A DNA stretch of 60,824 nt, the filler included, from Desulfonatronovibrionaceae bacterium (GTDB lineage: Bacteria > Desulfobacterota > Desulfovibrionia > Desulfovibrionales > Desulfonatronovibrionaceae): assembly GCA_046539845.1 (NCBI GenBank). It is 2 parts of 2 records of this genome, joined end to end, with 100 filler letters (N's around TTAATTAATTAA, not from the genome) between each part and the next. Parts side by side here need not be neighbours in the genome. Positions count along the whole stretch, not along the records: positions 1 to 30,687 come from JBKHGE010000026.1; 1 more part is not named here. One strand, given 5' to 3'. Below the pieces are notes generated by a model. It ran no database searches. It had not been told where the DNA came from and saw nothing but the letters and a program-made list of their open reading frames with translations. This document shows, piece after piece, positions 14,561 through 30,219 of the stretch (positions within the stretch are counted from its first letter, which is position 1; every line of letters starts with the position of its first letter). The translations under genes were made by a program, and so were the position numbers.

Positions 14561-14902
14561 TCAGCCCATTGCCGCCGGACCGGTCTCCTCGGTGCGGATG
14601 CGCATGGCCTCAGCCACTTCCAGGACAAAAATCACCCCGTCACCCTCGTTTCCGGTCTGGGCACCCTTTTTAATCGCCTCCAGGGCGGGCTGGACAAACT
14701 CATCATTTACTCCGATCTCCAGGCGGACCTTTTTCAACAGATTCACCTCCACGGCCACTCCGCGGTAAGTCTCGGTAAATCCCTTCTGACGGCCGCTGCC
14801 CAATATATTGGTTACCGAGAGATTGTAAACATCCGAGGCGTAAAGCTCCTGCTTTACACTGTTTAATTTCTCCGGTCGAATATAGGCTATTATCATTTTC
14901 AT
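14561..14902 (-). CDS. glnK: nitrogen regulatory protein P-II
   Basis: IRPEKL, GSGRQKG, YRG, TGNEGDGVIFV and RIRTEE motifs; co-transcribed with amtB. Confidence 0.92.
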   Translation of the reverse strand: MKMIIAYIRPEKLNSVKQELYASDVYNLSVTNILGSGRQKGFTETYRGVAVEVNLLKKVRLEIGVNDEFVQPALEAIKKGAQTGNEGDGVIFVLEVAEAMRIRTEETGPAAMG

Positions 14903-14922
14903 TTTGTTAATCCTCCAAACAG

Positions 14923-16299
14923 TTACTCGTTGCTGAAGACCTGAAAACCGCTGTAGGACTCCATACCGTGTTCACTTATATCCAGTCCCTTTAGCTCCTC
15001 GGCTTCGCTGACCCGGATGCCGAACACCTTGTCCGCGATCTTGAATACAATGTATCCGGCCGCAAGGGCCCAGATCATGACTGCGACTACTCCCAGGGCC
15101 TGGACCAGAAGCGGCTTGATCCCGCCGCCGTAAAACAGGCCGGACATAGACCCGAAACCCGGGGCGGCGAAAAGGCCAACGCACAAAGTCCCGAAGGCCC
15201 CGCAGACCCCGTGCACCGATACTGCGCCCACCGGATCGTCCACACGCAGGACCTTGTCTATAAATTCCACGGAAAGGACGCAAAGCACTCCGGAAAAGAA
15301 TCCGATGATTATGCTTCCCAGAGGCGAGACCTCGAAACATCCGGCGGTAATCCCTACCAGCCCGGCCAAGGCGCCGTTAAGGGAGATGGAGACATCCGGC
15401 TTGCCGAATCGGACCCAGGCCAGAAGCATGGCCCCAATCACTCCGGCGGCCGCGGACAAATTGGTGTTCAAGGCGATATAGCCGATACTTCCGTCCGCTG
15501 TAGTCGTACTGCCCGCATTGAATCCGAACCAAGCGAACCAGAGAATAAAGACACCCAGGGCACCCAGGGGGATATTGTGCCCGGGGATGGCTCGGGCCAC
15601 TCCGTCCGGAGTATATTTTCCTCTCCTCGGCCCAAGTACCCAGGAGCCGACCAGGGCGATCCAGCCGCCTACCGAATGAACCACCGTGGAGCCGGCAAAG
15701 TCGGCAAAACCGAGGTTCTCCAGCCAGCCACTGCCGGCCTCGCCCAGCCACAGGCTGCCCCAGGCCCAGTGCCCGGATATCGGATACACCAAGCCGGTGA
15801 CCAAAAGACTGACCAAAATATATCCGGAAAACTTGGTCCGCTCAGCTATCCCTCCGGAGACAATAGTGGCTGCCGTGGCTGCGAACACACTCTGGAAAAT
15901 CACAAAAGTAAGTGTCCAATTCCCTTCCGGAGTACCGGGAATCACCCCGGCAAGTCCGAAGCCGCTGCTGCCGATTATCCCGGCCGCGTCCGCTCCGAAC
16001 ATAAACGCAAACCCCAAAAGGAAAAAGGTGATCGAACCCACGGAAAAATCCAGGGCATTTTTCATTAAAATGTTGCCTGCATTCTTGGCTCGGGTAAACC
16101 CAGCCTCAACCATGGCAAACCCGGCCTGCATGAACATGACCAGAATGGCCGCGATCAGGGTCCATAAAATGTTCCCGTGCTCCTGGGACAAGAACTCCCC
16201 GGCCCGAGCGGCCGTGGGCAATAGGGTCAGAGCAAACCCTGCTCCGAATACGTTCACGAGTTTACGTGCTCTCCTTCCGACAAAATTGTAGCCATCCAT
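14923..16299 (-). CDS. amtB: ammonium transporter
   Basis: MQAGFAMVEAG, DFAGSTVVH, WFGFNAGS and DDPVGAVSVHG motifs; ATG at 16299 after GGAGGTG. Confidence 0.96.
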   Translation of the reverse strand: MDGYNFVGRRARKLVNVFGAGFALTLLPTAARAGEFLSQEHGNILWTLIAAILVMFMQAGFAMVEAGFTRAKNAGNILMKNALDFSVGSITFFLLGFAFMFGADAAGIIGSSGFGLAGVIPGTPEGNWTLTFVIFQSVFAATAATIVSGGIAERTKFSGYILVSLLVTGLVYPISGHWAWGSLWLGEAGSGWLENLGFADFAGSTVVHSVGGWIALVGSWVLGPRRGKYTPDGVARAIPGHNIPLGALGVFILWFAWFGFNAGSTTTADGSIGYIALNTNLSAAAGVIGAMLLAWVRFGKPDVSISLNGALAGLVGITAGCFEVSPLGSIIIGFFSGVLCVLSVEFIDKVLRVDDPVGAVSVHGVCGAFGTLCVGLFAAPGFGSMSGLFYGGGIKPLLVQALGVVAVMIWALAAGYIVFKIADKVFGIRVSEAEELKGLDISEHGMESYSGFQVFSNE

Positions 16300-16329
16300 A
16301 AAGACACCTCCGTTGTTTTTCCTTTGCCT

Positions 16330-16345
16330 TGCAAACAACGGTCCA
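16330..16345 (-). promoter_or_regulatory. sigma54 -24/-12 promoter of amtB-glnK
   Basis: Minus strand TGGACCGTTGTTTGCA = GG-N10-GC, about 30 nt upstream of the amtB start. Confidence 0.7.
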
Positions 16346-16619: not shown

Positions 16620-16649
16620 TTGACAAGCGGACAAAAGCTTACTTATAAG
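16620..16649 (+). promoter_or_regulatory. sigma70 promoter of the aromatic supraoperon
   Basis: TTGACA (16620-16625), 18-nt spacer, TATAAG (16644-16649); predicted +1 falls at about the leader ATG (16657). Confidence 0.65.
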
Positions 16650-16656
16650 CGGCCTC

Positions 16657-16746
16657 ATGCAAAGCACAACCTTCAACTACAGCTTTTTTTGGTATTTTTA
16701 TTTTACAAAGGCCTGTGGTCCGGAGGTTGTGGTGCACTGTAGCTAA
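16657..16746 (+). CDS. aromatic amino-acid attenuator leader peptide MQSTTFNYSFFWYFYFTKACGPEVVVHCS
   Basis: Translated by hand (too short for the ORF track): 9 aromatic codons within 11 (5 Phe, 3 Tyr, 1 Trp), between the promoter and a terminator upstream of aroA'. Confidence 0.85.
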   Translation: MQSTTFNYSFFWYFYFTKACGPEVVVHCS

Positions 16747-16768
16747 AAGTCAGGTACCATAAAACACC

Positions 16769-16806
16769 AAAGGGCCGCAGGCGGAAGCCGGCGGCCCTTT
16801 TTTATT
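16769..16806 (+). terminator. attenuator terminator upstream of aroA'
   Basis: AAAGGGCCGC-AGGCGGAAGCCG-GCGGCCCTTT followed by TTTATT; its 5' arm can instead pair with 16711-16721. Confidence 0.85.
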
Positions 16807-16863
16807 GTCGTCTTCTTCCGGGCCGCGGGCAAAAAGCCGGGCCGAAACCAAGGAGGACACAAG

Positions 16864-17664
16864 ATGCAACAGGGAAAAGCAATCCGGCTGGAAAGGATCT
16901 TTGACCGCAACACCGGCAGGGCGATCATAGTCCCTTTGGATCATGGCGTGACCATCGGTCCGGTTTACGGGCTGGTGGACCTGAAAAAAACCGTGGACAA
17001 GGTGGCCGAAGGCGGGGCCAACGCAGTGCTCATGCACAAAGGACTCTCCCGCTGCGGCCATCGCGGCCACGGCCAGGACGTGGGGCTGATAGTCCACCTT
17101 TCGGCCAGCACCGCCCTTTCTCCCCATCCGAATACCAAGACCCTGGTGGGCGGAGTTGAGGACGGCATCAAGCTCGGCGCGGATGCAGTCTCCATCCACG
17201 TAAATCTGGGAGACGAAAACGAGCGCAACATGCTCAAGGACGCCGGACAGGTCTGCTCCCGGGCCAGCGACTGGGGAATGCCGGTTCTGGCCATGGTTTA
17301 CGCCCGGGGACCGAAGGTGGAAAACGAATATGACCCCAAAATGGTCGCCCATTGCGCCCGGGTGGGCGAAGAATTGGGTGCAGACGTGGTCAAAGTGGCC
17401 TACTCCGGAGACGCAGAATCCTTTGAACGGGTGGTGGACGCCTGCTGCATCCCGGTGGTCATTGCCGGGGGAGAAAAAATGGACAACAACAGGGATCTCC
17501 TCAAAATGGTCCAGGATTCCATCCAGGCCGGAGGAGCAGGCCTGTCCATCGGCCGGAATATTTTCCAGCACGACGACCCCACTCTTTTGGTCCACGCCCT
17601 GAAAATGATTGTCCACAACGACGCCGAACTCCAGGAGGCCCTGGATATCCTGCAACCCAACTAG
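16864..17664 (+). CDS. 2-amino-3,7-dideoxy-D-threo-hept-6-ulosonate synthase (AroA', class I aldolase family)
   Basis: [31 protein letters not shown] and GRNIFQH motifs; paired with DHQ synthase II. Confidence 0.88.
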
Positions 17665-17676
17665 GACGATTGTAAA

Positions 17677-18651
17677 ATGGACAAAAAAGTATACTTTAGC
17701 GCCGTACCTTTTGACAAAGAGCTGGTCACGATCGCTTTGGAATCCGGAGCAGACGGGGTGATAACCGAGGCCAAGGACGTGGACAAGGTGCGTTCCCTGT
17801 CCCGGGTCGAGGCCCTGGACAAGAGCAAATTCCGTTTTTTGCAGATAAAGTCCAAGGATGACGAAAAGGCAGCGGTCAATGCGGCCAAAAAAGGGGAAAA
17901 AGTTGTCTTGAGGCACGGTGTGGAGATCATTCCGGTGGAAAACATCCTGGCTGAAAGCGGGGATGTGGGCATGGAGGTGGCCACGGCCGAGGAGGCCGCA
18001 ACTGCACTGGGCATTTTGGAAAAAGGTGTGGCCTTTCTTGTGGTCACCGCGGACAATGCCCAGGGCATCAAAAATTGCCTCGCCGCGGCCAAACAGACAG
18101 CCGGAACCCTGGAACTCTCCCGGGCCAAGATCACCGAGATAAGACCGGTCGGGCTAGGCCATCGCGTATGCGTGGACACCATCTCCCTCTTAAATACCGG
18201 ACAGGGGATGCTCGTGGGCAATTCCAGCGGGTTTACCTTTTTGATCAACGCTGAGACTGAATCCAATCCATACGTGGCTCCGCGTCCTTTCCGCATCAAC
18301 GCGGGTGCGGTCCATTCCTACGCTGTTTTGCCGGGGGACAGGACCTGTTACCTGGAGGAGCTCGGCCCGGGCGACGAGGTGCTGATCGCCGGTCCCAAAG
18401 GCGAGACCCGGATCAGCTCTGTAGGCCGGCTCAAAACCGAGGTCAGACCCATGCTTTTGGTCCGTGCGGCCGGGGCAAAGGGCGAGGGCACGGTCATCCT
18501 GCAAAACGCTGAGACCATCCGTCTGGTGGATCCGGACGGAAAACCGGTCAGCGTGGTCGACCTCAAGCCCGGAGACGAGATCTTGTGCCGCTGCGACACA
18601 GCCGGACGCCATTTTGGAATGCGTATCCAGGAAGACATCCGGGAAAAATAG
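17677..18651 (+). CDS. 3-dehydroquinate synthase II (AroB')
   Basis: GHRVCVDT, RPFRINAGAVHSY, LQNAETIRL and GRHFGM motifs. Confidence 0.93.
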   Translation: MDKKVYFSAVPFDKELVTIALESGADGVITEAKDVDKVRSLSRVEALDKSKFRFLQIKSKDDEKAAVNAAKKGEKVVLRHGVEIIPVENILAESGDVGMEVATAEEAATALGILEKGVAFLVVTADNAQGIKNCLAAAKQTAGTLELSRAKITEIRPVGLGHRVCVDTISLLNTGQGMLVGNSSGFTFLINAETESNPYVAPRPFRINAGAVHSYAVLPGDRTCYLEELGPGDEVLIAGPKGETRISSVGRLKTEVRPMLLVRAAGAKGEGTVILQNAETIRLVDPDGKPVSVVDLKPGDEILCRCDTAGRHFGMRIQEDIREK

Positions 18652-18669
18652 CCCCGGACAGGAACTATC

Positions 18670-19758
18670 ATGGACGACACCCGCTTCGATACAGTCAGAA
18701 AAAAAATCAACGCCACCGATGAAAAGATCCTGGAACTCTTGAACTCCAGGGCCAAACTGAGCATGGAGGTGGGGCGGATAAAGGCCGGGTCCGGGACCAA
18801 CGTGTTTAGACCGTTCCGGGAAAAGGACCTCCTGCAGTCGCTTGTTGAAAAAAACCCCGGTCCGCTTCCGGCAGAGCATCTGGTGAACATATATACGGAG
18901 ATACTCTCCTCCTCCCGCCGCCTGCAGAGACCGCAGTCCGTAGCCTATCTGGGTCCGGAAGGCACCTTTTCCTATCTGGCCGGGGTGGAATTCCTGGGCA
19001 AGAGTTCGGAATTCGTGCCCATGAACTCCCTTAGGGACGTATTCGCGGCTGTATCCGAGAACCGCACCCACCTCGGGGTTATCCCCCTGGAAAACTCTTT
19101 ACAGGGCAGCGTGGGGCAGAGCCTGGACCTTTTTTTGAGTTTCGAGCTGACCATCCTGGCCGAGCTGTTCTGCCGCATAAGTCATTCCCTTCTGGGCCGG
19201 TCCTCAGGACTCAAGGAAGTGGAAAGGGTTTACTCCCATCCCCAGGCCCTGCAACAATGCGCGAACTGGCTGCGGTCCAACCTCCCGGAGGCCAAATTGG
19301 TTCCGGTCTCCTCCACAGCCGCAGCCGCACAGGAAGCGGAAAAGGATGAACACGGCGCTGCCATCGGACATTTCAAGCTGGCCAGCCAGAACGACCTGGA
19401 GATCATCCATTCCGGTATAGAGGACCTGCCGGACAACTGGACCAGGTTCCTTATCCTGGGTCGGGAACCGACCGAGGACCAGGGTAACAGGGACAAGACC
19501 TCGATTCTGTTCACCCTCCCGGACAAACCGGGCTCCCTGGTCCGGGCCCTGCAGGTCCTCTCCGGCCGAGGCATAAATATGACCAAGCTGGAGTCCAGGC
19601 CCTTGCCGTTTGAAAAATGGAAATATGTGTTTTTTGCTGACGTGCAGTGTGATCTGACCGCCGGGGAGTACAAGAAGATGCTCGAGGAATTGAACTCCGC
19701 CTGCCATTCCATGCGCGTTCTGGGCAGCTACCCTGAGGGCAAGCAGGTCAGGTTCTGA
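18670..19758 (+). CDS. pheA: chorismate mutase / prephenate dehydratase (P-protein)
   Basis: N-terminal AroQ domain, YLGPEGTFS, PLENS, SHPQALQQC, NWTRF, and ACT domain with TKLESRP. Confidence 0.96.
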   Translation: MDDTRFDTVRKKINATDEKILELLNSRAKLSMEVGRIKAGSGTNVFRPFREKDLLQSLVEKNPGPLPAEHLVNIYTEILSSSRRLQRPQSVAYLGPEGTFSYLAGVEFLGKSSEFVPMNSLRDVFAAVSENRTHLGVIPLENSLQGSVGQSLDLFLSFELTILAELFCRISHSLLGRSSGLKEVERVYSHPQALQQCANWLRSNLPEAKLVPVSSTAAAAQEAEKDEHGAAIGHFKLASQNDLEIIHSGIEDLPDNWTRFLILGREPTEDQGNRDKTSILFTLPDKPGSLVRALQVLSGRGINMTKLESRPLPFEKWKYVFFADVQCDLTAGEYKKMLEELNSACHSMRVLGSYPEGKQVRF

Positions 19759-19760
19759 TT

Positions 19761-21131
19761 ATGGTCAACCAAACTAAGGCCATAACCCTGACCGCGCCTG
19801 GCTCCAAATCGGTATCGCACCGGCTTTTGATCTGCGCCGCTTTGGCTGACCGCACCAGCCGGTTACAAAACCTGCTGGACAGCGAGGACATCCACTGCAC
19901 TGCGGACTGCTTGCGCCAGCTGGGGGCGATTACCTCTGGAAACCCGGGAGACAAAGCAATGCGGGTAACCGGGATAGCCGGCCGGGTGCACAATACAGGG
20001 GAAAGCCCGGTGGAGCTGGATGTGCGCGAATCCGGGACCACCTGCCGCCTTTTGGCCGCTGTTGTTTCCGCCGGGCAGGGCCTCTTTTCTATCCGCGGCA
20101 GGGGCAGGATGCACCAGCGCCCTCTTTACGATCTGGCCCGGGCGGTGGAGAATCAGGGAACCGATTTCAAATGGCTGGAAAAGCACGGCTGCCCTCCGGT
20201 GCATATCCTCGGCCGGGGCTTTAGCGGCGGGGAGATAGAGATCAGCATGGACAAGAGCAGTCAATTTCTGTCCGGCCTGCTCCTTGCCGCTCCAATGGCC
20301 GCCTTGCCGCTCAAAATCCATGTCTGCGGGAGAAAAGCGGTCTCCTGGCCGTACGTGGGCCTTACCCTGCAGGCCATGCACAAATTCGGGGCCCGGGTCG
20401 AGGTGTACAGCCAGGACAGACTGATCGCCGCTTTGGGTGAGACCAGCGGTCTAAAGGAAATAGTCCCCGGCGAAACCAGCTTTTATGTCCGGCCTGGCCC
20501 GTATGTGGCCAATGAAGTGTTTGTCGAAGGCGACTATAGCAGTGCCTCCTATCTCTTGGCCGCAGGCGCTCTCGGGAAATCCGCCGTGGAGGTCAACGGA
20601 CTGGACCCGGATTCTACACAGGGAGACCGGGTCATAGTCGACATTCTGCACAAAATGGGGGCCAATATAAAACGCACAGCCCACGGCTACCTCTCCATGC
20701 CCTCCGAACTGCACGGCACGGATATAGACATGGGGCACTGCCCGGATCTGGTACCCACTGTGGCCGCAGCTGCCTGCTGGGCCTCCGGAGAAACCAGAAT
20801 AACAAACGTCGCTCATCTGCGGCTCAAGGAGAGCGACCGTCTAGCCGCACTGGAGAGCGAACTCAACCGGGCCGGATTCGCGGTCCGGGCCCAGGAAAAC
20901 GGGCTGCTTATAGGAGGCAGGACCGCATCCAGGAAAAAGACCGAATTTCGGACCCACGGCGACCATCGCATGGCCATGTCCCTGTCTCTTTTGGAACTTT
21001 TGGGCTTTCAAGTCGCCCTGGACAACCCCAGTTGCGTGGATAAATCCTATCCCGGATTCTGGGAGGATTTGCAAAGGATCAAAGAAGCCAACGGCCTGCA
21101 GTCTGTAGGTTCGGGAAACAAAACAAGCTAA
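19761..21131 (+). CDS. aroA: 3-phosphoshikimate 1-carboxyvinyltransferase (EPSP synthase)
   Basis: PGSKSVSHR, ESGTTCR, SSQFLS, LRLKESDR, DHRMAM and KSYPGFW motifs. Confidence 0.96.
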   Translation: MVNQTKAITLTAPGSKSVSHRLLICAALADRTSRLQNLLDSEDIHCTADCLRQLGAITSGNPGDKAMRVTGIAGRVHNTGESPVELDVRESGTTCRLLAAVVSAGQGLFSIRGRGRMHQRPLYDLARAVENQGTDFKWLEKHGCPPVHILGRGFSGGEIEISMDKSSQFLSGLLLAAPMAALPLKIHVCGRKAVSWPYVGLTLQAMHKFGARVEVYSQDRLIAALGETSGLKEIVPGETSFYVRPGPYVANEVFVEGDYSSASYLLAAGALGKSAVEVNGLDPDSTQGDRVIVDILHKMGANIKRTAHGYLSMPSELHGTDIDMGHCPDLVPTVAAAACWASGETRITNVAHLRLKESDRLAALESELNRAGFAVRAQENGLLIGGRTASRKKTEFRTHGDHRMAMSLSLLELLGFQVALDNPSCVDKSYPGFWEDLQRIKEANGLQSVGSGNKTS

Positions 21132-21162
21132 AAAGCCAACAACAGTCTAGCGGCAAACCAAT

Positions 21163-21948
21163 ATGGACCAGGAAATAGAAAAAATCGCCCTGATTGGGGG
21201 GCGGGGGCGCATGGGACGCCTGTTCGCCGGCTTGTTTGCTGCGGCCGGCCTGGAGATCAAGACTTTTGACCGGCCCTTGGACAGCCACCGTCTACAAAAG
21301 GAGCTGCCGGATTGCCGGCTGGTGCTTATGTGCACTCCGGTACACGCCCTTCCGGACGCCCTGGCGGATATCGTCCCTGCCCTGGGAGCGCATAACATCC
21401 TGGCCGACATCTCCTCGGTCAAGGTCAAGCCCATGCAGCAGATGCGGGAGGCGTTCTCCGGCCCGATAGTTGGCACACACCCCCTTTTCGGACCCGATCC
21501 GGACGGCCAGACCCCGCTCAGATGCGCCATATGCCCGGACGCCTCGGCCTCTGCAGAGGACACGGCAGCCCTGGAAAAGTCCTTTACTGACGCGGGTATA
21601 ATCCCGTTCAGGAGCGAGGCGCACGAACACGACCGGGCCATGGCCTGTATCCAGGGCCTGAATTTCGTAACCTCTATCTGCTATTTCGCCTCTCTACCCG
21701 GCGATCTGGACCTCTCCAGCTTTGCCACTCCTTCTTTCAACCGCCGCTTCGAGTCGGCGCGCAAGATGCTTACCGAAGACAGCGAATTGTTCACCTCCCT
21801 TTTTGAGGCCAATCCGTACAGCGCGGAGAGTGTGCGCCGCTTCAAGTCCTTTTTGAATCTGGCCGCCGCCGGAGAGCTGAATCTCCTTTCGGACAAGGCC
21901 GCTTGGTGGTGGTGGAACAAGGATATACAGTCGGGAGAAGGACCTTGA
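21163..21948 (+). CDS. tyrA: prephenate/arogenate dehydrogenase with C-terminal WWWW run
   Basis: IGGRGRMG, DISSVK, GTHPLFGP and HDRAMACIQ motifs; ends ...KAAWWWWNKDIQSGEGP. Confidence 0.92.
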   Translation: MDQEIEKIALIGGRGRMGRLFAGLFAAAGLEIKTFDRPLDSHRLQKELPDCRLVLMCTPVHALPDALADIVPALGAHNILADISSVKVKPMQQMREAFSGPIVGTHPLFGPDPDGQTPLRCAICPDASASAEDTAALEKSFTDAGIIPFRSEAHEHDRAMACIQGLNFVTSICYFASLPGDLDLSSFATPSFNRRFESARKMLTEDSELFTSLFEANPYSAESVRRFKSFLNLAAAGELNLLSDKAAWWWWNKDIQSGEGP

Positions 21949-21997
21949 ACGGATAACAGCAAAAATCCGGTTTGCCAGCAAGGCCGCATTCTCCCGA
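21931..21997 (+). promoter_or_regulatory. antiterminator hairpin of the tyrA-trpE attenuator
   Basis: TCGGGAGAA (21931-39) pairs with TTCTCCCGA (21989-97); CCTTG (21943-47) pairs with CAAGG (21979-83); inner AACGGAT pairs with ATCC(G)GTT; mutually exclusive with the terminator. Confidence 0.8.
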
Positions 21998-22011
21998 ATG
22001 CGGCCTTTTTT
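21980..22011 (+). terminator. intrinsic terminator (attenuator) between tyrA and trpE
   Basis: 12-bp stem AAGGCCGCATTC-TCCC-GAATGCGGCCTT running into a T-tract. Confidence 0.9.
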
Positions 22012-22052: not shown

Positions 22053-23465
22053 ATGATCGAATTAAAACATTTTGTCCGCAACATTCCGGCCGATACCCAG
22101 ACCCCGGTCTCCTTGTATCTGAGCTTTATCGGAAACAAGAAAGGGCTCCTTCTGGAGAGCTCGGAAGTGGACGGGAGACTGGGGAGGTTCAGCATGCTGG
22201 CCTGGGACTTCCGCCTCACTCTGACCTGTGAACAGGGGCTTTTGCGAGTGGGCTTAAAAGACGAACGCCTGGCGGAGATCAAAGAAATAGACGGGCTGCC
22301 TTTTGTCCAGGGGGTACGCAGGGCAATGCAAGCCATAAATATCCACCCCCCGGAACAGGGGGCTGCCCCTCCGGCCATAACCCGCTCTTTGTGCGGCTAT
22401 TTCGGCTACACCGCAGCCGGACTGTTTGAGCCAGCCCTAAATGGTGTTCTTCCTCCGGAAGAGGCCGAGGCCCAGCTAGTTTTGCCCGGCCGGATCCTGC
22501 TCTATGACCACCTGCACAAGTCCTGCATCTATCTCACCCTGGACGAGGACGGCTTTTTGCCCCGGGGTGGGTGCTCAGCCGGCGGGAAAAGCACCGGCAC
22601 CGGAGAAGTCCATTCCTACCCGCCCAAAAAGGAGTTCAAAAGCCGGGTCCGGGAGGTAAAAAAGCAGATCGAGGAGGGCGAGGCCATCCAGGTGGTCCTT
22701 TCCACCCGGTTCACCGCCGCCTTCAAAGGCGACCCCTTCCAGGTCTACCGCAGGCTGCGGCAGATAAACCCCTCCCCGTACACCTTTTTCATGGACCTTC
22801 CCGGCCGCTGCCTGTTCGGCTCTTCCCCGGAGCTTCTGGTCAAGGCCGAGGACGGCCAGGCCATGCTCCGGCCCATTGCCGGGACCCGGCCCCGCTCCGA
22901 GGATCCGGAAAAGGACGAGGCCCTGGCCCGGGAATTGGCAGCAGACGAAAAGGAAAAGGCCGAGCATGTCATGCTGGTCGACCTGGGCCGCAACGATCTG
23001 GGCCGCATAGCCGCGCCTGGATCGGTCCGGGTGGACAAGTTCATGCAGATCGAACGCTTCTCGCATGTCATGCACATGACCTCCTATCTGCAGGCAGAGC
23101 TGAAAAAAGGCGTGGACTGCATGGACCTTGTGGCCGCCTCCTTCCCGGCCGGCACTGTCTCCGGGGCACCCAAAATACGGGCCATGGAGATCATCGCCGA
23201 AAAGGAGGACTTAAAGCGCGGCCCCTATGCCGGGTGCATCGGCTGGTTCGGCTTGGACCGGGATACGGTGCAGATGGACACCGGAATAACCATCCGCAGC
23301 CTGTGGGTGGAGGGGGACAAACTGCACTGGCAGGCCGGGGCCGGGATTGTCTTTGACTCCGATCCGGAAGCCGAATTTAGGGAATGCCAGAACAAGGCCG
23401 CGGTCATAAAAGCGGCCCTAATCGACAACGGAGGCACTGATGATTTTGCTCATAGACAATTATGA
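22053..23465 (+). CDS. trpE: anthranilate synthase component I
   Basis: LLESSE, NPSPY, SSPE, RPIAGT, EHVMLVDLGRND and FPAGTVSGAPKIRAM motifs; ATG at 22053 after GGAGG. Confidence 0.96.
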   Translation: MIELKHFVRNIPADTQTPVSLYLSFIGNKKGLLLESSEVDGRLGRFSMLAWDFRLTLTCEQGLLRVGLKDERLAEIKEIDGLPFVQGVRRAMQAINIHPPEQGAAPPAITRSLCGYFGYTAAGLFEPALNGVLPPEEAEAQLVLPGRILLYDHLHKSCIYLTLDEDGFLPRGGCSAGGKSTGTGEVHSYPPKKEFKSRVREVKKQIEEGEAIQVVLSTRFTAAFKGDPFQVYRRLRQINPSPYTFFMDLPGRCLFGSSPELLVKAEDGQAMLRPIAGTRPRSEDPEKDEALARELAADEKEKAEHVMLVDLGRNDLGRIAAPGSVRVDKFMQIERFSHVMHMTSYLQAELKKGVDCMDLVAASFPAGTVSGAPKIRAMEIIAEKEDLKRGPYAGCIGWFGLDRDTVQMDTGITIRSLWVEGDKLHWQAGAGIVFDSDPEAEFRECQNKAAVIKAALIDNGGTDDFAHRQL

Positions 23466-24033
23466 CTCGTTCACTTTCAACCTGGTTCAGGTTCTGCAGG
23501 TCCTAGGCCATCATCCACTTGTACTGCGCAATGACCAGCCGGAGCTGAGCGAAAGGATCACCGACCCGGAATTAAAGGCCCTCATCCTGTCCCCGGGGCC
23601 GGGCCGGCCGGAAAACGCGGGCATGTGCCTGGAGCTCTTAACCTGCCTGCCCGCGCAGATCCCGGTTCTGGGCGTGTGTCTAGGCCATCAGGCCCTGGCC
23701 TGCTACGCCGGCAGTAAGGTGAACACCGGAACCAGGATCATGCACGGCAAGACCTCTGAAGTGATGCACGACGGCAGCCCGCTATTTGCCGGGATCTCCA
23801 GCCCGTTTACCGCCTGTCGGTACCACTCCCTTCTGGCCGAGGATATCCCCGGAATAGAGGTCATCGCCAATACCGAAGAAGGGGAGATTATGGCCCTCAA
23901 ACTCCCGGACCGTCCCTGGTACGGAGTGCAATTCCACCCGGAATCCATCCTCACCCCAGACGGTCCCAGGATCATGGACAACTTCTTTGCCATGCACGGC
24001 ATAAAAAAGAACAAGGAGGAGTTATGCGCATAA
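23440..24033 (+). CDS. trpG: anthranilate synthase component II
   Basis: IDNYDSFTFNL, SPGPG, GVCLGHQ, RYHSL and QFHPES motifs. Confidence 0.96.
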   Translation: MILLIDNYDSFTFNLVQVLQVLGHHPLVLRNDQPELSERITDPELKALILSPGPGRPENAGMCLELLTCLPAQIPVLGVCLGHQALACYAGSKVNTGTRIMHGKTSEVMHDGSPLFAGISSPFTACRYHSLLAEDIPGIEVIANTEEGEIMALKLPDRPWYGVQFHPESILTPDGPRIMDNFFAMHGIKKNKEELCA

Positions 24034-25019
24034 ACGAAGTACTGCAGAAAATCGGCACCGGCACGGACCTGGAATACGCGGAAAGCAAGACCATGTTTGA
24101 ACGCTTCTTTGCCGGGGAACTCACCCCTTCTCAGTGCGGAGCACTCCTTATGGGGCTTACCGGCAAAGGGGAAACCGCGGACGAACTCAAGGCAGCCGTG
24201 GACTCCGCCCTGGACAATGCCCGGCTTATCCGGGGACTGGACGGAGTACGTATCGACACCTGTGGGACCGGTGGGGACGGGCAAAACAGTTTCAATTGCT
24301 CCACGGCAGTGGCCTTTTTTCTGGCCGACATGGGGTATAAGGTAGTCAAGCACGGCAACCGGGCGGTGTCCAGCACCTGCGGCAGTGCGGATATAATCCA
24401 GGCGCTTGATTTGCCCATTTTGAAGGATCCGGACGAGATCAAAGGATCTCTGGCCGCAACCAACTTCGCCTTCATCTTCGCCCCGCACTTCCATCCGGCC
24501 TTTGCCCGGGTCGCTCCTATCCGCCAGGAGTTGGGCATACGGACTATCTTTAATCTCATGGGGCCTTTGCTCAACCCGGCCCGGCCCACCCATCAGGTAC
24601 TGGGGGTACCCAAAGCGGGAATGGCCCCGCTCATGGCCGAAGTCCTGCGCCTAAGCGGATTGAAGGCAGCAGTGGTCCATGGCGCCGGAGGGTTTGACGA
24701 ACTTACTCCCTGCGGGGTGTCTGAAATCCATCTTGTAGATCGGGAAAGGACAAAAAAGCTCGATATTGATCCTGCCACCTTTGGGATGGACATCTGCCGC
24801 CCCAGGGATCTGGGCTGCTCGGACAAACAAACCGCTGTGGCCATGCAAAAGGAGGTTTTGGCCGGGAAAGGCCCAGGAGCGGTGCGGGATATGGTGGCCC
24901 TTAACCTGGGCCTGGCCCTGCATCTTCTAGACTTTGATGCCGGACTGGAAAATTGCATCCGCGAAGCGCGGAAAACCGTGGAAAATGGACTGCAAAATCC
25001 CATCCCCAGTGCGGCATGA
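24024..25019 (+). CDS. trpD: anthranilate phosphoribosyltransferase
   Basis: DTCGTGGDG, KHGNR, RTIFNLMGPLLNP and GFDE motifs. Confidence 0.96.
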   Translation: MRINEVLQKIGTGTDLEYAESKTMFERFFAGELTPSQCGALLMGLTGKGETADELKAAVDSALDNARLIRGLDGVRIDTCGTGGDGQNSFNCSTAVAFFLADMGYKVVKHGNRAVSSTCGSADIIQALDLPILKDPDEIKGSLAATNFAFIFAPHFHPAFARVAPIRQELGIRTIFNLMGPLLNPARPTHQVLGVPKAGMAPLMAEVLRLSGLKAAVVHGAGGFDELTPCGVSEIHLVDRERTKKLDIDPATFGMDICRPRDLGCSDKQTAVAMQKEVLAGKGPGAVRDMVALNLGLALHLLDFDAGLENCIREARKTVENGLQNPIPSAA

Positions 25020-25106
25020 TTTTTTAAAGACTATAAAGAGCATATCTCTGGGGCAGCCCAGACTAGAGAGTGAAGAAAACAAGCCAAAACATACGGAGAC
25101 GAACCG

Positions 25107-25877
25107 ATGCTGGAAATATTCAGGCGGATCAAGCTTGAAGAGATAAAAGACCTGAAGAGGATGAAAAGGCTGGGGTCTTTTCCCGCACCCTTCTGCGGCA
25201 CCCGGCCCGGCCTAAAGCCCAGGCTGAAGGGCGGAGCACCGGCGATAATTGCGGAGATAAAAAAGGCCTCTCCTTCGCACGGAGAGATAAAAACAGACCA
25301 GGACACCGGGGAATTGGCCGCTATTTACGCCCAAAACGGGGCGGAGGCCATTTCGGTCTTGACCGAGGAACACCTTTTCCACGGACATGTCCAGGACCTG
25401 AACCTAGCCGCTCCTCCCGGTCTGCCCTTGCTGCGCAAAGATTTTATCCTCGATCCTGTCCAAATGGAGCATACTGCCTCCACCCCGGCGTCCGCAGTAC
25501 TTTTAATAGTCCGGTTCATAGGCGAGCAGTCCAAACTGTGTGATCTGATCGGGATTGGTCAGGAATTAGGCCTGGAAATGGTTACAGAGGTATTCAGCGC
25601 CCAAGAATTGGACTGTGCCCGCCGGGCCGGGGCAGATATAGTCCAGGTCAACAACAGAAACCTGGACAATCTGGAGGTCGATCTAGACAACTCCCGCAGC
25701 CTGGTCAAAGAGAAAAAGGACCAAGAGATCTGGATAAGCGCCAGCGGCCTTGACACCCGCAAACAATGCCTGGAGATGCACTACCTGGGATTTGACGCCT
25801 GCCTGATCGGTACCTCGGTTATGCTGGCAAGCGACCCCGGGGAGAAACTCAACGAGCTCACCGGAGTCCGGAGATGA
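25107..25877 (+). CDS. trpC: indole-3-glycerol phosphate synthase
   Basis: IAEIKKASPSHG, ISVLTE, LRKDFI and VNNRNL motifs. Confidence 0.95.
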   Translation: MLEIFRRIKLEEIKDLKRMKRLGSFPAPFCGTRPGLKPRLKGGAPAIIAEIKKASPSHGEIKTDQDTGELAAIYAQNGAEAISVLTEEHLFHGHVQDLNLAAPPGLPLLRKDFILDPVQMEHTASTPASAVLLIVRFIGEQSKLCDLIGIGQELGLEMVTEVFSAQELDCARRAGADIVQVNNRNLDNLEVDLDNSRSLVKEKKDQEIWISASGLDTRKQCLEMHYLGFDACLIGTSVMLASDPGEKLNELTGVRR

Positions 25878-26503
25878 AGACCAGGGTCAAGATCTGCGGC
25901 ATTACCCGGGAGCAGGACTTACTTTTTTGTATACAGGCCGGTATCGACTTTGCCGGATTCATCTTTCACCCGGAGAGCAGGCGGTATATCCGGCCAGAAC
26001 AGGTCGGAGCACTCAAAGGGATGGAAGGCGGCCGGGTCGGAGTCTTTGTTCGCCACAGCCTGGAGGAGATAAAAGAGGCGGTTGATGCGGCGCGCCTGGA
26101 CTTCATCCAGCTGCACGGCGCCCAGGATACGGAGTTTTGCCGCGCCCTTCCCGCGGACAAGATAATCAAGGTGTTCTGGCCGGAAAAATATCCCAGCCCA
26201 GAGGAGCTGCAAAAAGACATGCGCCTTTTCGCCCCATTGTGCCGCTATTTGCTCCTTGACGCCGGACAGGGCGGCGGAGGGCACGGACGGAGGATCAAGA
26301 CCCCTTATCCTGAAGAACGCGATCTTTTGGGCAGAACCTTTATCGCCGGCGGCCTTGGCCCGGACAATATAAAACAGGTGTTGAACCAATCCCCTTTTGC
26401 GGTGGATATAAGTTCCGGAGTGGAAAAATCCCCGGGAATAAAGGACCAAACCCTGGTCCTTGAGCTGATAAGAAAGGTAAGGACCAAAAAGGGTTTGGAC
26501 TAG
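25874..26503 (+). CDS. trpF: phosphoribosylanthranilate isomerase
   Basis: [19 protein letters not shown] and VDISSGVE motifs. Confidence 0.95.
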
Positions 26504-26598
26504 ACACGGCAGTCGCCAGTGGCCTGGGTTTAGCTTGGCAACCAGACAGACTGTTTTTAGGTCTTTTTGGTCTTAACAGACAATCAAAAGGAGAAATA

Positions 26599-27765
26599 AT
26601 GATGCGCAAGGGATATTTCGGCAATTACGGCGGGCAGTTCGTGCCTGAGCTGCTCATGCCCCCGCTTTTGGAGCTGGAAGAGGCCATGGACAAACATCTT
26701 TCCAGCCCGGAGTTCACCAAAGATTTGGACATCTTACTCCGGGACTTTGTGGGCAGGCCCACTCCGCTTCGCTTCTGCAGACGGCTCTCTGAAGACCTAG
26801 GGTTTTCGCTGTGGCTCAAGCGCGAGGACTTGGCCCACACCGGGGCGCACAAAATAAACAACACCGTGGGTCAAGCCCTTCTTGCCAGATATATGGGCAA
26901 AAATACCCTCCTGGCTGAAACCGGGGCCGGGCAGCACGGAGTGGCCACGGCAACAGCCGCGGCCATGCTGGGCATGGACTGTTTGGTATATATGGGAGCC
27001 AAGGATATCGAGCGTCAGGCGCACAACGTCCGGCGTATGGAACTGTTGGGCGCACGGGTGGAGCCGGTAAAGACCGGGACTCAGACCCTAAAGGACGCTA
27101 TCAACGGAGCACTCCGGGACTGGATAGCCCGCCAGGAAAAATGCCACTATTGCATGGGCTCTGTGGTCGGCCCGCATCCCTTTCCCCTCCTGGTCCGCGA
27201 GATGCAAAGCGTGATCGGAACAGAAACAAAAAAACAAATTCTCGCCCAGGCCGGGTCAAAACCACACACCGTTATAGCCTGTGTGGGAGGCGGGTCGAAT
27301 GCGGCCGGGATGTTCTCGCCATTTGAGGCGGATACCGACGTACGCCTAATCGGAGTGGAGGCCGCAGGCAAGGGCGGGGAAAAGGATTACCATTCCGCCA
27401 CCTTGAACAAGGGCACTCCGGGTATTCTCCACGGCACATACTCTTTTTTGCTCCAGACGGACCAAGGCCAGATTCTGCCCTCGCATTCTGTGGCCCCGGG
27501 GCTGGATTATCCGGGTGTAGGACCGGAACACGCCTTTTTAAAAACCTCCAGGCGGGCCGAATACTTAAGCGTTACCGATAGCAAGGCCCTTGATGCCTTC
27601 TACCGCCTGACCAGGCAGGAAGGGATTATCCCGGCCCTGGAGAGTTCACACGCCCTGGCCTGCGCCCTGGATCTGCAAGGCAAGATGGACAAAGACGATC
27701 ATGTGGTGGTCAATCTCTCCGGCCGCGGGGACAAGGATCTGGGGATCGTCTTCAGTGACCGATAA
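26599..27765 (+). CDS. trpB: tryptophan synthase beta subunit
   Basis: [43 protein letters not shown] and NLSGRGDKD motifs. Confidence 0.97.
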
Positions 27766-27827
27766 GCCGCGAACCAATTACTTTTCAAAGTTGTCCAACC
27801 CTGAAACCGACAGCAAGGAGATTATGT

Positions 27828-28601
27828 ATGAACGGCCATCAAGCCCTGCACCGGGCCATAAAAAAGGCAAATCAAAAAAAACGGCCCGCGCTCATCCCTT
27901 TCCTTCCGGCCGGATACCCGCAAAAGTCCCGGTTCTGGGATTTGATCCACGAGCTGGACTCCGGCGGCGCAGATATCATAGAGATAGGGGTTCCGTTCTC
28001 CGATCCGGTGGCCGACGGCCCGGTTGTTGAGGAGGCCTCGATTGCCTGCCTGGAGCAGGGCATAGACCTCGAATGGATACTGCAGGGGCTAACTGAGCAG
28101 GCTGAGTATCTGTCCGCACCAGTGGTACTCATGGGCTACAGCAATCCCTTTTACCAATACGGGCTCAAGGGACTGGCCCAAGACGCCGCCCAAGCCGGAG
28201 TTTCCGGATTCATCGTTCCCGACCTTCCCCTGGAGGAACTCCCTGCGTTTGAAGGGCTGCAAAGCAGTGCGGAGACCACGATTATCCCCCTGATCGGACT
28301 GAACACCACCGCCGGGCGGATGAAGGCCTACGCCGAGCTTGACCCGGCCTTTGTGTACACGGTCTCAGTCATGGGCACCACCGGGACAAAAGCCGGAGCG
28401 AGCAGCCGCTTAAAAAGCCAGCTCGCTTTGGCCCGGGAGATCTTTGACTGCCCTCTCGCCCTGGGCTTTGGCATTGAAAACAAAGACCAGATCCGCGATC
28501 TCGGAGTGGAGGTCCAGGCCGTGGTTTTTGGTAGCGCCCTTATCCGCCATATACGCCAGGGAAAATCAGTAAAAGAGTTTATGCGTGCCTGGACTGAATA
28601 A
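27828..28601 (+). CDS. trpA: tryptophan synthase alpha subunit
   Basis: EIGVPFSDPVADGPVV, VPDLP, GTTG and GFGI motifs. Confidence 0.96.
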   Translation: MNGHQALHRAIKKANQKKRPALIPFLPAGYPQKSRFWDLIHELDSGGADIIEIGVPFSDPVADGPVVEEASIACLEQGIDLEWILQGLTEQAEYLSAPVVLMGYSNPFYQYGLKGLAQDAAQAGVSGFIVPDLPLEELPAFEGLQSSAETTIIPLIGLNTTAGRMKAYAELDPAFVYTVSVMGTTGTKAGASSRLKSQLALAREIFDCPLALGFGIENKDQIRDLGVEVQAVVFGSALIRHIRQGKSVKEFMRAWTE

Positions 28602-28817: not shown

Positions 28818-28833
28818 TGGCATGCAAATTGAA
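28818..28833 (+). promoter_or_regulatory. sigma54-type promoter of glnA
   Basis: TGGCATGCAAATTGAA: canonical -24 TGGCA with a TTGA variant at -12 and correct spacing. Confidence 0.6.
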
Positions 28834-28872
28834 TTACTCTTGGAAAAACAACAAACCTTTCAGGAGGGAAAC

Positions 28873-30219
28873 ATGAGTTTGGACATGGCCTTTAATTGCA
28901 AGAACGCCGACGACGTGATCAAGGCGGTACGGGAATACGAAATCAGTTTTGTTCAGTTCTGGTTCGTGGACGTTTTGGGCACCTTAAAGAGTTTCCAGGT
29001 CACCCCGAATGAGCTCGAGGCCGCATTTGAGGAGGGCATGGGCTTTGACGGTTCATCCATCGAGGGCTTTGCCCGCATCCATGAAAGCGATATGGTTGCC
29101 TTCCCTGATCCAACCTCGTTTCAGGTGGTTTCCTGGAGACCTACTGAAAAGCCGGTGGCCAGGATGTTCTGCGATATAAAGAACCCGGACGGGACCCCGT
29201 ACGAAGGGGACACCCGCTACGCCCTGAAAAGGATGCTCTCCCGGGCCGCGGAAAAGGGATACACGTTTTACACCGGCCCGGAGCTGGAGTTCTTTCTCTT
29301 TGAAAACAATCGCGAGCCCAAGATCCTGGATTACGGCGGATATTTTGATGCACCGCCTCTGGATCTGGCCAACGACATACGCCGGGACATTATTTTCTCC
29401 TTGAACAAGATGGGAATCCAGGTGGAATACAGTCATCATGAGGTGGCTCCCAGCCAGCATGAAATCGATCTCCGCTACCAGGAGGCCCTGAAAATGGCTG
29501 ACACGGCTATCACCTATCGGGTCATAGTCAAGGAGACAGCCCGCAAACACGGCTGCTACGCCACTTTCATGCCCAAGCCCCTGGCCGGGGTGAACGGCAG
29601 CGGCATGCATGTGCACCAGTCCCTTTTCAAAAACGGGAAAAACCTTTTCTATGACGGCAAAGGGGAATTCCACCTGAGCAAGGAAGGCCGGAGCTATATC
29701 GCCGGACTACTCAAACACGCCAAGGAAATAACCGCGCTTTGCAACCAATGGGTAAACTCGTACAAGAGGCTGGTTCCCGGTTACGAGGCCCCGGTTTACG
29801 TGGCCTGGGCCCGGCGCAACCGCTCCTCCCTGGTCCGGGTGCCCATGTACAAACCAGGCAAGGAGGAAGCCACTCGGGTGGAACTGCGCTCCCCGGACCC
29901 GGCCTGCAATATGTATCTGGCCTTTGCCGGCATGCTGGCCGCCGGATTGAAGGGGATTGAGGACGGGTATGAGCTGCCCGATCCCGTGGAAAAGGACATC
30001 TTTGAGATGAATGATGCCGAACGGGCCGATATGGGCATTGAAAACCTCCCCGGAAGCCTGGTGGAGGCCATTGACGAATTGTCCGGCAGCGAAACCATAC
30101 GCGAGGCCCTCGGGGACCATATCTTTAGCCAGTTCATCTCCAACAAGAACATCGAATGGGACGACTACCGGACCCAGATCACTGAATACGAGATAAAGAA
30201 ATACCTGCCGCTTTTGTAG
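28873..30219 (+). CDS. glnA: glutamine synthetase type I
   Basis: FDGSSIEG, GPELEF, HHEVAPSQHE, FMPKP, NGSGMHVHQS and NSYKRLVPGYEAP motifs; ATG at 28873 after AGGAGG. Confidence 0.96.
   Translation: MSLDMAFNCKNADDVIKAVREYEISFVQFWFVDVLGTLKSFQVTPNELEAAFEEGMGFDGSSIEGFARIHESDMVAFPDPTSFQVVSWRPTEKPVARMFCDIKNPDGTPYEGDTRYALKRMLSRAAEKGYTFYTGPELEFFLFENNREPKILDYGGYFDAPPLDLANDIRRDIIFSLNKMGIQVEYSHHEVAPSQHEIDLRYQEALKMADTAITYRVIVKETARKHGCYATFMPKPLAGVNGSGMHVHQSLFKNGKNLFYDGKGEFHLSKEGRSYIAGLLKHAKEITALCNQWVNSYKRLVPGYEAPVYVAWARRNRSSLVRVPMYKPGKEEATRVELRSPDPACNMYLAFAGMLAAGLKGIEDGYELPDPVEKDIFEMNDAERADMGIENLPGSLVEAIDELSGSETIREALGDHIFSQFISNKNIEWDDYRTQITEYEIKKYLPLL

Follow-up and report, generated by a model that had tools for sequence, protein, structure and literature searches.

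A predicted leaderless leader-peptide attenuator with a mixed Phe/Tyr/Trp codon block ahead of the aromatic amino-acid operon in Desulfovibrionales

Results

The window analysed here is the whole 60,824-nucleotide stretch of DNA (filler included) from a Desulfonatronovibrionaceae bacterium (assembly GCA_046539845.1), and it carries on the plus strand an operon of 12 genes that lies 3′ of a short leader, with intergenic gaps of −26 to 104 nt. The first controlled gene, aroA′ (16864-17664), encodes 2-amino-3,7-dideoxy-D-threo-hept-6-ulosonate synthase (TIGR01949, 392 bits against a cut-off of 299) and is preceded by an AGGAGG Shine-Dalgarno (SD) sequence at 16851-16856. It is followed at 17677-21948, with gaps of 2-31 nt, by genes assigned through NCBIfam as aroB′ (dehydroquinate synthase II), chorismate mutase/prephenate dehydratase, EPSP synthase and tyrA, the scores of aroB′ and tyrA falling under the curated cut-offs, and then by trpE, G, D, C, F, B and A (22053-28601; NCBIfam). 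The first-pass annotation of this DNA had placed the common pathway under control of the leader; of that pathway the operon contains only a part (aroA′, aroB′ and EPSP synthase), to which it adds the Phe, Tyr and Trp branches. The operon is flanked by a divergent amt gene with a PII-like gene (14561-16338; the PII label was read from the translation) and by glnA (28822-30219), and amt is also found upstream in several relatives. The nearest named relatives belong to Desulfovibrionales.

The leader is a 29-codon open reading frame at 16657-16746 (plus strand) encoding MQSTTFNYSFFWYFYFTKACGPEVVVHCS. Its codons 6-16 (16672-16704) comprise 5 Phe, 3 Tyr and 1 Trp codon, giving nine aromatic codons in 11, and seven of them run without interruption as FFWYFYF (codons 10-16, 16684-16704). 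Both the sequence and the ORF list thus bear out the 29-codon frame and the aromatic run described earlier. Among 18,670 short ATG ORFs (15-45 amino acids) of the same genome, it is the sole case with at least six aromatic residues in a row.

Upstream regions were collected from the best 80 of 407 aroA′ loci and from 30 loci of 41 relatives, resulting in 110 related sequences of which 94 were distinct. A search of these regions for short Phe/Trp/Tyr-rich ORFs and covarying stems, as the first-pass annotation had proposed, returned an aromatic leader ahead of aroA′ in 91 of 94, together with covariation in both of the mutually exclusive helices described below. Two of the three regions lacking the leader (L030 and L049) are truncated at contig ends, while the third (L008) has a terminator, with no leader found. 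Block codons of the homologous leaders are aromatic in 87% of cases when read in frame, a share that drops to 28% and 32% in the alternative frames, and the tally of TTT 191, TAT 99 and TGG 77 indicates, by its 77 TGG codons, that the aromatic block is not a plain T-run. The earlier worry that T-richness might be incidental is therefore not upheld. Codons ending in U are preferred within the block (TTT 191 to TTC 33 and TAT 99 to TAC 29, compared with 73 to 70 and 30 to 47 in the operon genes), which may reflect higher starvation sensitivity or the need to keep the RNA open.

Upstream of the leader, a predicted sigma-70 promoter consists of a −35 element TTGACA (16620-16625) and, after an 18-nt spacer, a −10 element TATAAG (16644-16649) that a consensus scan missed. 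A TTGAC motif is located 30-45 nt 5′ of the leader ATG in 91 of the 94 related regions, the next base being A in 96%, and the positions 24 and 25 counted from TTGAC are T in 77% and A in 96% of the 91 homologs. Between 16400 and trpE, TTGAC-N17-19-TA occurs at this single site. The spacing toward the start codon is narrow, with 74 of 91 leaders having their ATG 36-38 nt past TTGAC and 89 of 91 having it at 36-40 nt, against a genome-wide background in which an ATG follows 370 of 4,471 TTGAC sites at a distance of 35-40 nt; the base just 5′ of the ATG is mostly C in the 91 homologs. SD-like words are found ahead of 10 of 91 leaders, compared with 91 of 91 aroA′ genes. From these sequence features it is probable that the leader ORF is leaderless, with its ATG as the predicted transcription start. 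In one genus (L123-L129), the promoter lies 53-58 nt upstream, some 20 nt farther, and an SD-like word replaces the leaderless start at six of seven loci, the seventh being wrongly parsed. The appearance of an SD-like site where the promoter has moved suggests selection on translation of the leader by either route.

The leader RNA can be partitioned into regions 1 to 4 of a classical attenuator. Region 1, the protector arm (16665-16687), pairs with 16707-19 and 16722-31. Region 2, the 5′ arm of the antiterminator (16711-16735), has a core at 16711-21 and an extension up to 16735. Region 3 (16769-16782) is shared, serving as the 3′ arm of the antiterminator and the 5′ arm of the terminator, and region 4 with its U-tract (16787-16803) completes an intrinsic terminator of −25.5 kcal/mol. 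The terminator and the three helices proposed beforehand pair as described: the antiterminator core 16711-21/16772-82 in 11 of 11 positions (two G-U), the inner helix 16728-35/16754-61 in 8 of 8 (two G-U), the helix 16665-74/16722-31 in 10 of 10 (one G-U), and the terminator stem 16769-82/16787-800 in 13 of 14 (one A-G mismatch), with a U-run at 16798-16803. The role of competitor given to 16665-74/16722-31 needs amendment, however, because this helix leaves the antiterminator core 16711-21 uncovered. A longer 1:2 hairpin has this helix as its outer half, and the core is overlapped by the inner half, 16676-87/16707-19. By folding, the 154-nt leader reaches −59.7 kcal/mol (z −5.2; none of 200 shuffles equally good), 16711-16786 forms a single hairpin of −39.6 kcal/mol, and the 1:2 hairpin of this genome has −28.3 kcal/mol (z −8.5). 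Among 59 aligned homologs, the 1:2 hairpin in a leader-only fold has a z below −2 against shuffles in 37, with partners that vary and without fixed pairing columns. A simple promoter/terminator scan called no terminator at the leader and likewise missed the promoter; the terminator probably escaped because the mismatch interrupts its stem three pairs from the loop.

The alignment used here comprises 59 of the 94 regions, those excluded being mostly near-duplicates plus the three regions without a leader hit (L030, L049 and L008). A covariance model built from it matches 148 of 151 genomes of the order, some of which contributed to its training and whose relatedness makes them non-independent, and 43 of 81 genomes of a second order (the one holding L041). 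An exact DNA pattern was also tried as a measure of range in 401 genomes of the phylum, matching 25, and was abandoned since a control pattern matched several as well and the out-of-order matches inspected did not lie 5′ of aroA′. In the 59 leaders, region 2 (16711-21) and region 3 are paired in 96.3% of cells versus 36-47% in slid controls, and the terminator is paired in 91.8% of cells, with two-sided changes at 5 pairs. Alignment column pair 116/190 of the 2:3 helix is U-A in 41, C-G in 14 and U-G in 4 leaders and is never unpaired (59 of 59), while the corresponding base, 16779, is unpaired within the terminator in 49 of 59. On the aroA′ tree, the U-A/C-G label of this pair requires 4 changes, at least 3 of them being forced by well-supported branches. 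At ten loci (L017, L035, L037, L042, L054, L057, L066, L069, L071 and L074), two tandem aroA′ genes head the operon.

The position of the block relative to the antiterminator is also constrained. With codons counted from the Cys/Arg codon of the peptide tail, the 59 leaders are 80-100% aromatic at positions −10 to −4 and at most 10% aromatic at −3 to +6, so that the block ends four codons 5′ of the antiterminator helix; 57 of 59 have their stop codon between +6 and +10, the window leader having it at +10. We modelled snapshots in which the transcript ends after region 3 and the ribosome covers an assumed footprint of −18/+9 nt, which sets the modelled boundary. The mean probability of 2:3 pairing in this model was 0.81-0.99 with the ribosome at −25 to −5, 0.54 at −4 and 0.00 at −2 to +6. 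According to this model, a ribosome stalled in the block would leave the antiterminator arm free and a running one would cover it. In 18 of 59 leaders, the window leader among them, a ribosome placed on the stop codon does not keep the 2:3 helix from forming again around it, and naked untranslated RNA prefers 2:3 in 47 of 59. By contrast, no switch emerged when the full leader was folded to equilibrium with the bases under the ribosome blocked, the terminator keeping a probability of at least 0.98 at every ribosome position. Because equilibrium always favours the terminator in these calculations, the switch would have to be kinetic.

Conservation in 91 of 94 regions, an aromatic excess specific to the reading frame, covariation in the two exclusive helices and the ribosome geometry together lend firm support to the leader-peptide attenuation put forward in the first-pass annotation, and we regard the leader as very probably a ribosome-driven transcription attenuator, as judged from sequence. 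Transcription would begin with the A of the leader ATG or with a base adjoining it, and a ribosome would load without an SD site. With ample amino acids, the ribosome would pass codons 6-16 and mask region 2 and the inner helix (its partner arm being 16754-16761, which pairs with 16728-35) during synthesis of region 3; 3:4 would then form and transcription terminate near 16803, aided by the 1:2 hairpin behind the ribosome. With one of the tRNAs uncharged, the ribosome would pause within the block and mask region 1, leaving region 2 exposed to form 2:3 ahead of region 4 synthesis, and the polymerase would continue into aroA′. That this exclusive-helix leader opens the aromatic operon when charged Phe, Tyr or Trp tRNA is short is, taken as a whole, the best explanation and a likely one.

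Which amino acids are read can be approached by comparing codon content with the genes controlled. In the last ten block codons of the aligned aroA′-aroB′ leaders, Phe, Tyr and Trp are all present in 47 of 49, the other two (L047 and L079) having Trp and Tyr and no Phe. We took 20 covariance-model matches from genomes with several matches, among which the leaders of full aro-trp operons contain all three aromatics in 7 of 7. Trp is missing from the block in leaders of lone aroA′ genes (6 of 6, one of them identical to L065), in leaders of sodium:solute symporter genes (6 of 6) and in leaders of aroA′-pheA, which retain Phe and Tyr (4 of 4). Codon content thus tracks the controlled genes, Trp being absent where no trp genes follow.

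Several related leaders were observed away from the main operon. L198 (G491:C73) is a mixed aromatic leader straight before trpE with Cys where its relatives carry Tyr. Phe-rich copies precede an uncharacterised sodium:solute symporter (L179, L182, L185, L189, L192 and L195), the codon content of which suggests the symporter as a candidate importer of Phe, a phenyl-acid or a precursor. A second aroA′ paralog that stands alone and whose leader is rich in Phe and free of Trp (L016, L064, L065, L076, L181, L184, L187, L190 and L194) is possibly a Phe-regulated isoenzyme, comparable to those of DAHP synthase in E. coli. Related mixed leaders of the second order are located before classical DAHP synthase (L210, L214, L217, L219, L224 and L230, with NCBIfam confirming L217 and L224), so that the switch stays with the entry step regardless of the enzyme that performs it. 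The genome of the window itself has two further copies. L172 (G000:C5:87941-88081) is a Phe-only leader (E 5.6e-7) with a TTGACG-17-TATAAT promoter, its ATG at the predicted start and a terminator, and the gene 3′ of it is PaaK-like (phenylacetate-CoA-ligase-like). L177 (G000:C20:31210-31365, minus strand) is a Trp-only leader with Trp at four codons out of a stretch of five and with a similar RNA scaffold; this weak model match (E 0.13) lies about 200 nt upstream of the gene for a TRAP solute-binding protein, and its Trp codons suggest a Trp-related ligand for that binding protein.

The trp genes likely have a second, Trp-only attenuator at 21904-22011 (plus strand), built into the enzyme gene tyrA. 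Four Trp codons end tyrA, an antiterminator arm lies at 21931-41 and a terminator at 21980-22011, and folding of the window sequence ahead of trpE gave exclusive helices of −26.5 (2:3) and −21.2 kcal/mol (3:4). A scan from 16400 to trpE found no further TTGAC-type promoter ahead of trpE. If the tyrA-tail gate operates, Trp starvation must open the first gate too, and the trp genes would need the first leader gate and the tyrA-tail Trp gate to be open together. Such a need would explain why a Trp codon is kept in the first leader.

Two-gate control bears directly on a competing reading in which the attenuator is opened in practice only by Phe (or by Phe and Tyr), the single Trp codon being too weak or structural and Trp control resting on the tyrA tail plus basal read-through. 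Such a division would fit a window leader in which Trp is one of nine aromatic codons, a block in which TTT is the commonest codon, and the existence of a separate four-Trp element ahead of trpE. The Phe-Tyr-Phe leader of C. glutamicum aroR-aroF responds to Phe and not to Tyr according to a review (PMC11802643), which lends it further weight, since the presence of a codon is then no proof of sensing. What it leaves unexplained is that Trp is found in 49 of 49 aroA′-aroB′ leaders and in none of the blocks of the paralogous leaders checked that lack trp genes, that L047 and L079 carry Trp and Tyr and no Phe, and that trpE has no TTGAC-type promoter of its own. We consider it improbable. Within the preferred reading of a mixed-aromatic sensor, Phe and Tyr are each, in all probability, effective signals by codon content; that all three amino acids are each effective alone is reasonably probable, triple sensing being deduced from which codons the block holds.

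An arrest peptide, whose nascent chain would stall the ribosome or bind a metabolite through the A-C-G-L/P-x-G tail, might seem to be indicated by the invariant Gly at +1 (59 of 59) and by the Ala/Val-Cys/Arg preceding it. The tail coincides with the antiterminator arm, however. The U-A to C-G change in 2:3 recodes Cys to Arg, with the residue following the base pair, and in two paralogous leaders, L189 and L192, the tail RNA motif falls in a different frame, so the constraint acts on RNA and the peptide tail is a by-product of pairing. As the order and number of aromatic residues also vary freely, the arrest-peptide reading of the tail was rejected and is given very little credence here.

Equally doubtful is the proposal that the ORF is untranslated and that the U-rich block and its helices belong to a riboswitch or protein-binding attenuator with an incidental codon bias. 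It would account for 81 of 91 leaders lacking an SD-like site and for the favouring of U-ending codons (TTT over TTC), unlike in the operon genes. It is opposed by retention of the start codon and open frame in 91 of 94, by an in-frame aromatic excess over some 30% out of frame, by an ATG fixed at the predicted start with an SD-like site appearing where the promoter shifted upstream, and by the failure to find a riboswitch or T-box match in Rfam.

Past the U-tract, region 5 (16820-16830) is a near-copy of region 3 and complementary to region 4. Of 59 homologs, 36 have a region 5:region 4 duplex that beats composition shuffles (p ≤ 0.05), as against 0 of 4 aroA′-pheA leaders; region 5 is transcribed only once read-through occurs, and part of the signal may come from self-similar G+C hairpins. 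Mainly translational control, with the switch exposing or hiding the ribosome-binding site of aroA′ in the manner of the leaderless polycysteine ORFs of mycobacteria, could use this pairing as well as a local fold that pairs the aroA′ SD of the window with 16807-16, but it is highly implausible given a conserved strong hairpin and U-tract, and was set aside when modelled SD accessibility proved nearly constant (0.37 with 2:3 forced, 0.44 with 3:4 forced), with no consistent change through region 5.

Discussion

The leader is a likely regulator of aromatic amino-acid synthesis across Desulfovibrionales, and its family can be curated from the present alignment. It is well suited to testing whether a single leader is able to read all three aromatics, of which we found no demonstration in the open literature searched, and its paralogs hint at substrates for the symporter (Phe or a precursor) and for the TRAP system (Trp-related). 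Since the mechanism is a textbook one, the surprise is moderate. On a broader and more speculative level, to which we would give an even chance, the leaders would make up an order-wide aromatic "ribulon" of sulfate reducers, in which one reusable leaderless switch carries a swappable codon cassette (Phe, Tyr and Trp for the operon; Phe or Phe and Tyr for lone entry enzymes and the symporter; Trp for TRAP), acts in series with the tyrA Trp gate, names transporter substrates through its cassette and is locked in its ON fold by region 5.

Attenuation in delta-proteobacteria has reportedly been treated by Merino, Jensen and Yanofsky and by the Lyubetsky group. No Rfam family reaches its gathering level in the window and no T-box or riboswitch match was found there, the Rfam Phe_leader (RF01859) scoring 24.1 bits (E 0.073), below its gathering threshold of 55. 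Pfam and NCBIfam gave no family at E ≤ 1 for six of six leaders, and an exact sequence look-up in a protein collection found none of five. The element had been called unannotated, which agrees with these collections but has to be qualified by the literature: Table 7 of Song et al. 2005 prints a putative attenuator ahead of the aromatic supraoperon of D. vulgaris, taken from a prediction website (PMC1173090). With the same operon and the same position, the two are very probably orthologous. In the available text of that paper, the entry is listed without peptide, mechanism or test, and the main text does not use the word "leader" and names no leader peptide (PMC1173090). Our search of the open literature found PMC1173090 as the only paper on this element and none describing the leader peptide, which may already be in print. 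What is presented here is a classical attenuation mechanism in a family absent from Rfam, Pfam and NCBIfam.

The trpL and pheL leaders of E. coli fold via regions 1-4, as is predicted for the leader here. It differs from them in holding three codon types in one block, in being probably leaderless, and in preceding common-pathway genes along with genes of all three branches. Enterobacteria also have multivalent attenuators, in ilvGMEDA (Leu, Ile and Val) and thr (Thr and Ile), in which, as proposed here, a single leader reads several amino acids of a branched pathway, in another amino-acid family and another lineage. Further features shared with trpL and pheL, as described in the available text of a published account, are a short ORF with a run of cognate codons, an intrinsic terminator and a biosynthesis operon downstream (PMC11802643). 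The nearest tested mixed aromatic leader, on the available texts, is C. glutamicum aroR, which likewise sits before the first shikimate-pathway enzyme, aroF (PMC11802643, PMC4046766). It has three aromatic codons and no Trp, whereas the present leader has nine of three kinds and precedes the alternative AroA′/AroB′ entry route. Leaderless polycysteine short ORFs of mycobacteria, described as a "ribulon", occur at several loci per genome (bioRxiv 10.1101/834739) and resemble the present family in codon runs, in recurrence at several loci of one genome and in leaderless starts, which are predicted here. By contrast, those ORFs gate access to a ribosome-binding site, while the conserved output of the aromatic leaders is an intrinsic terminator.
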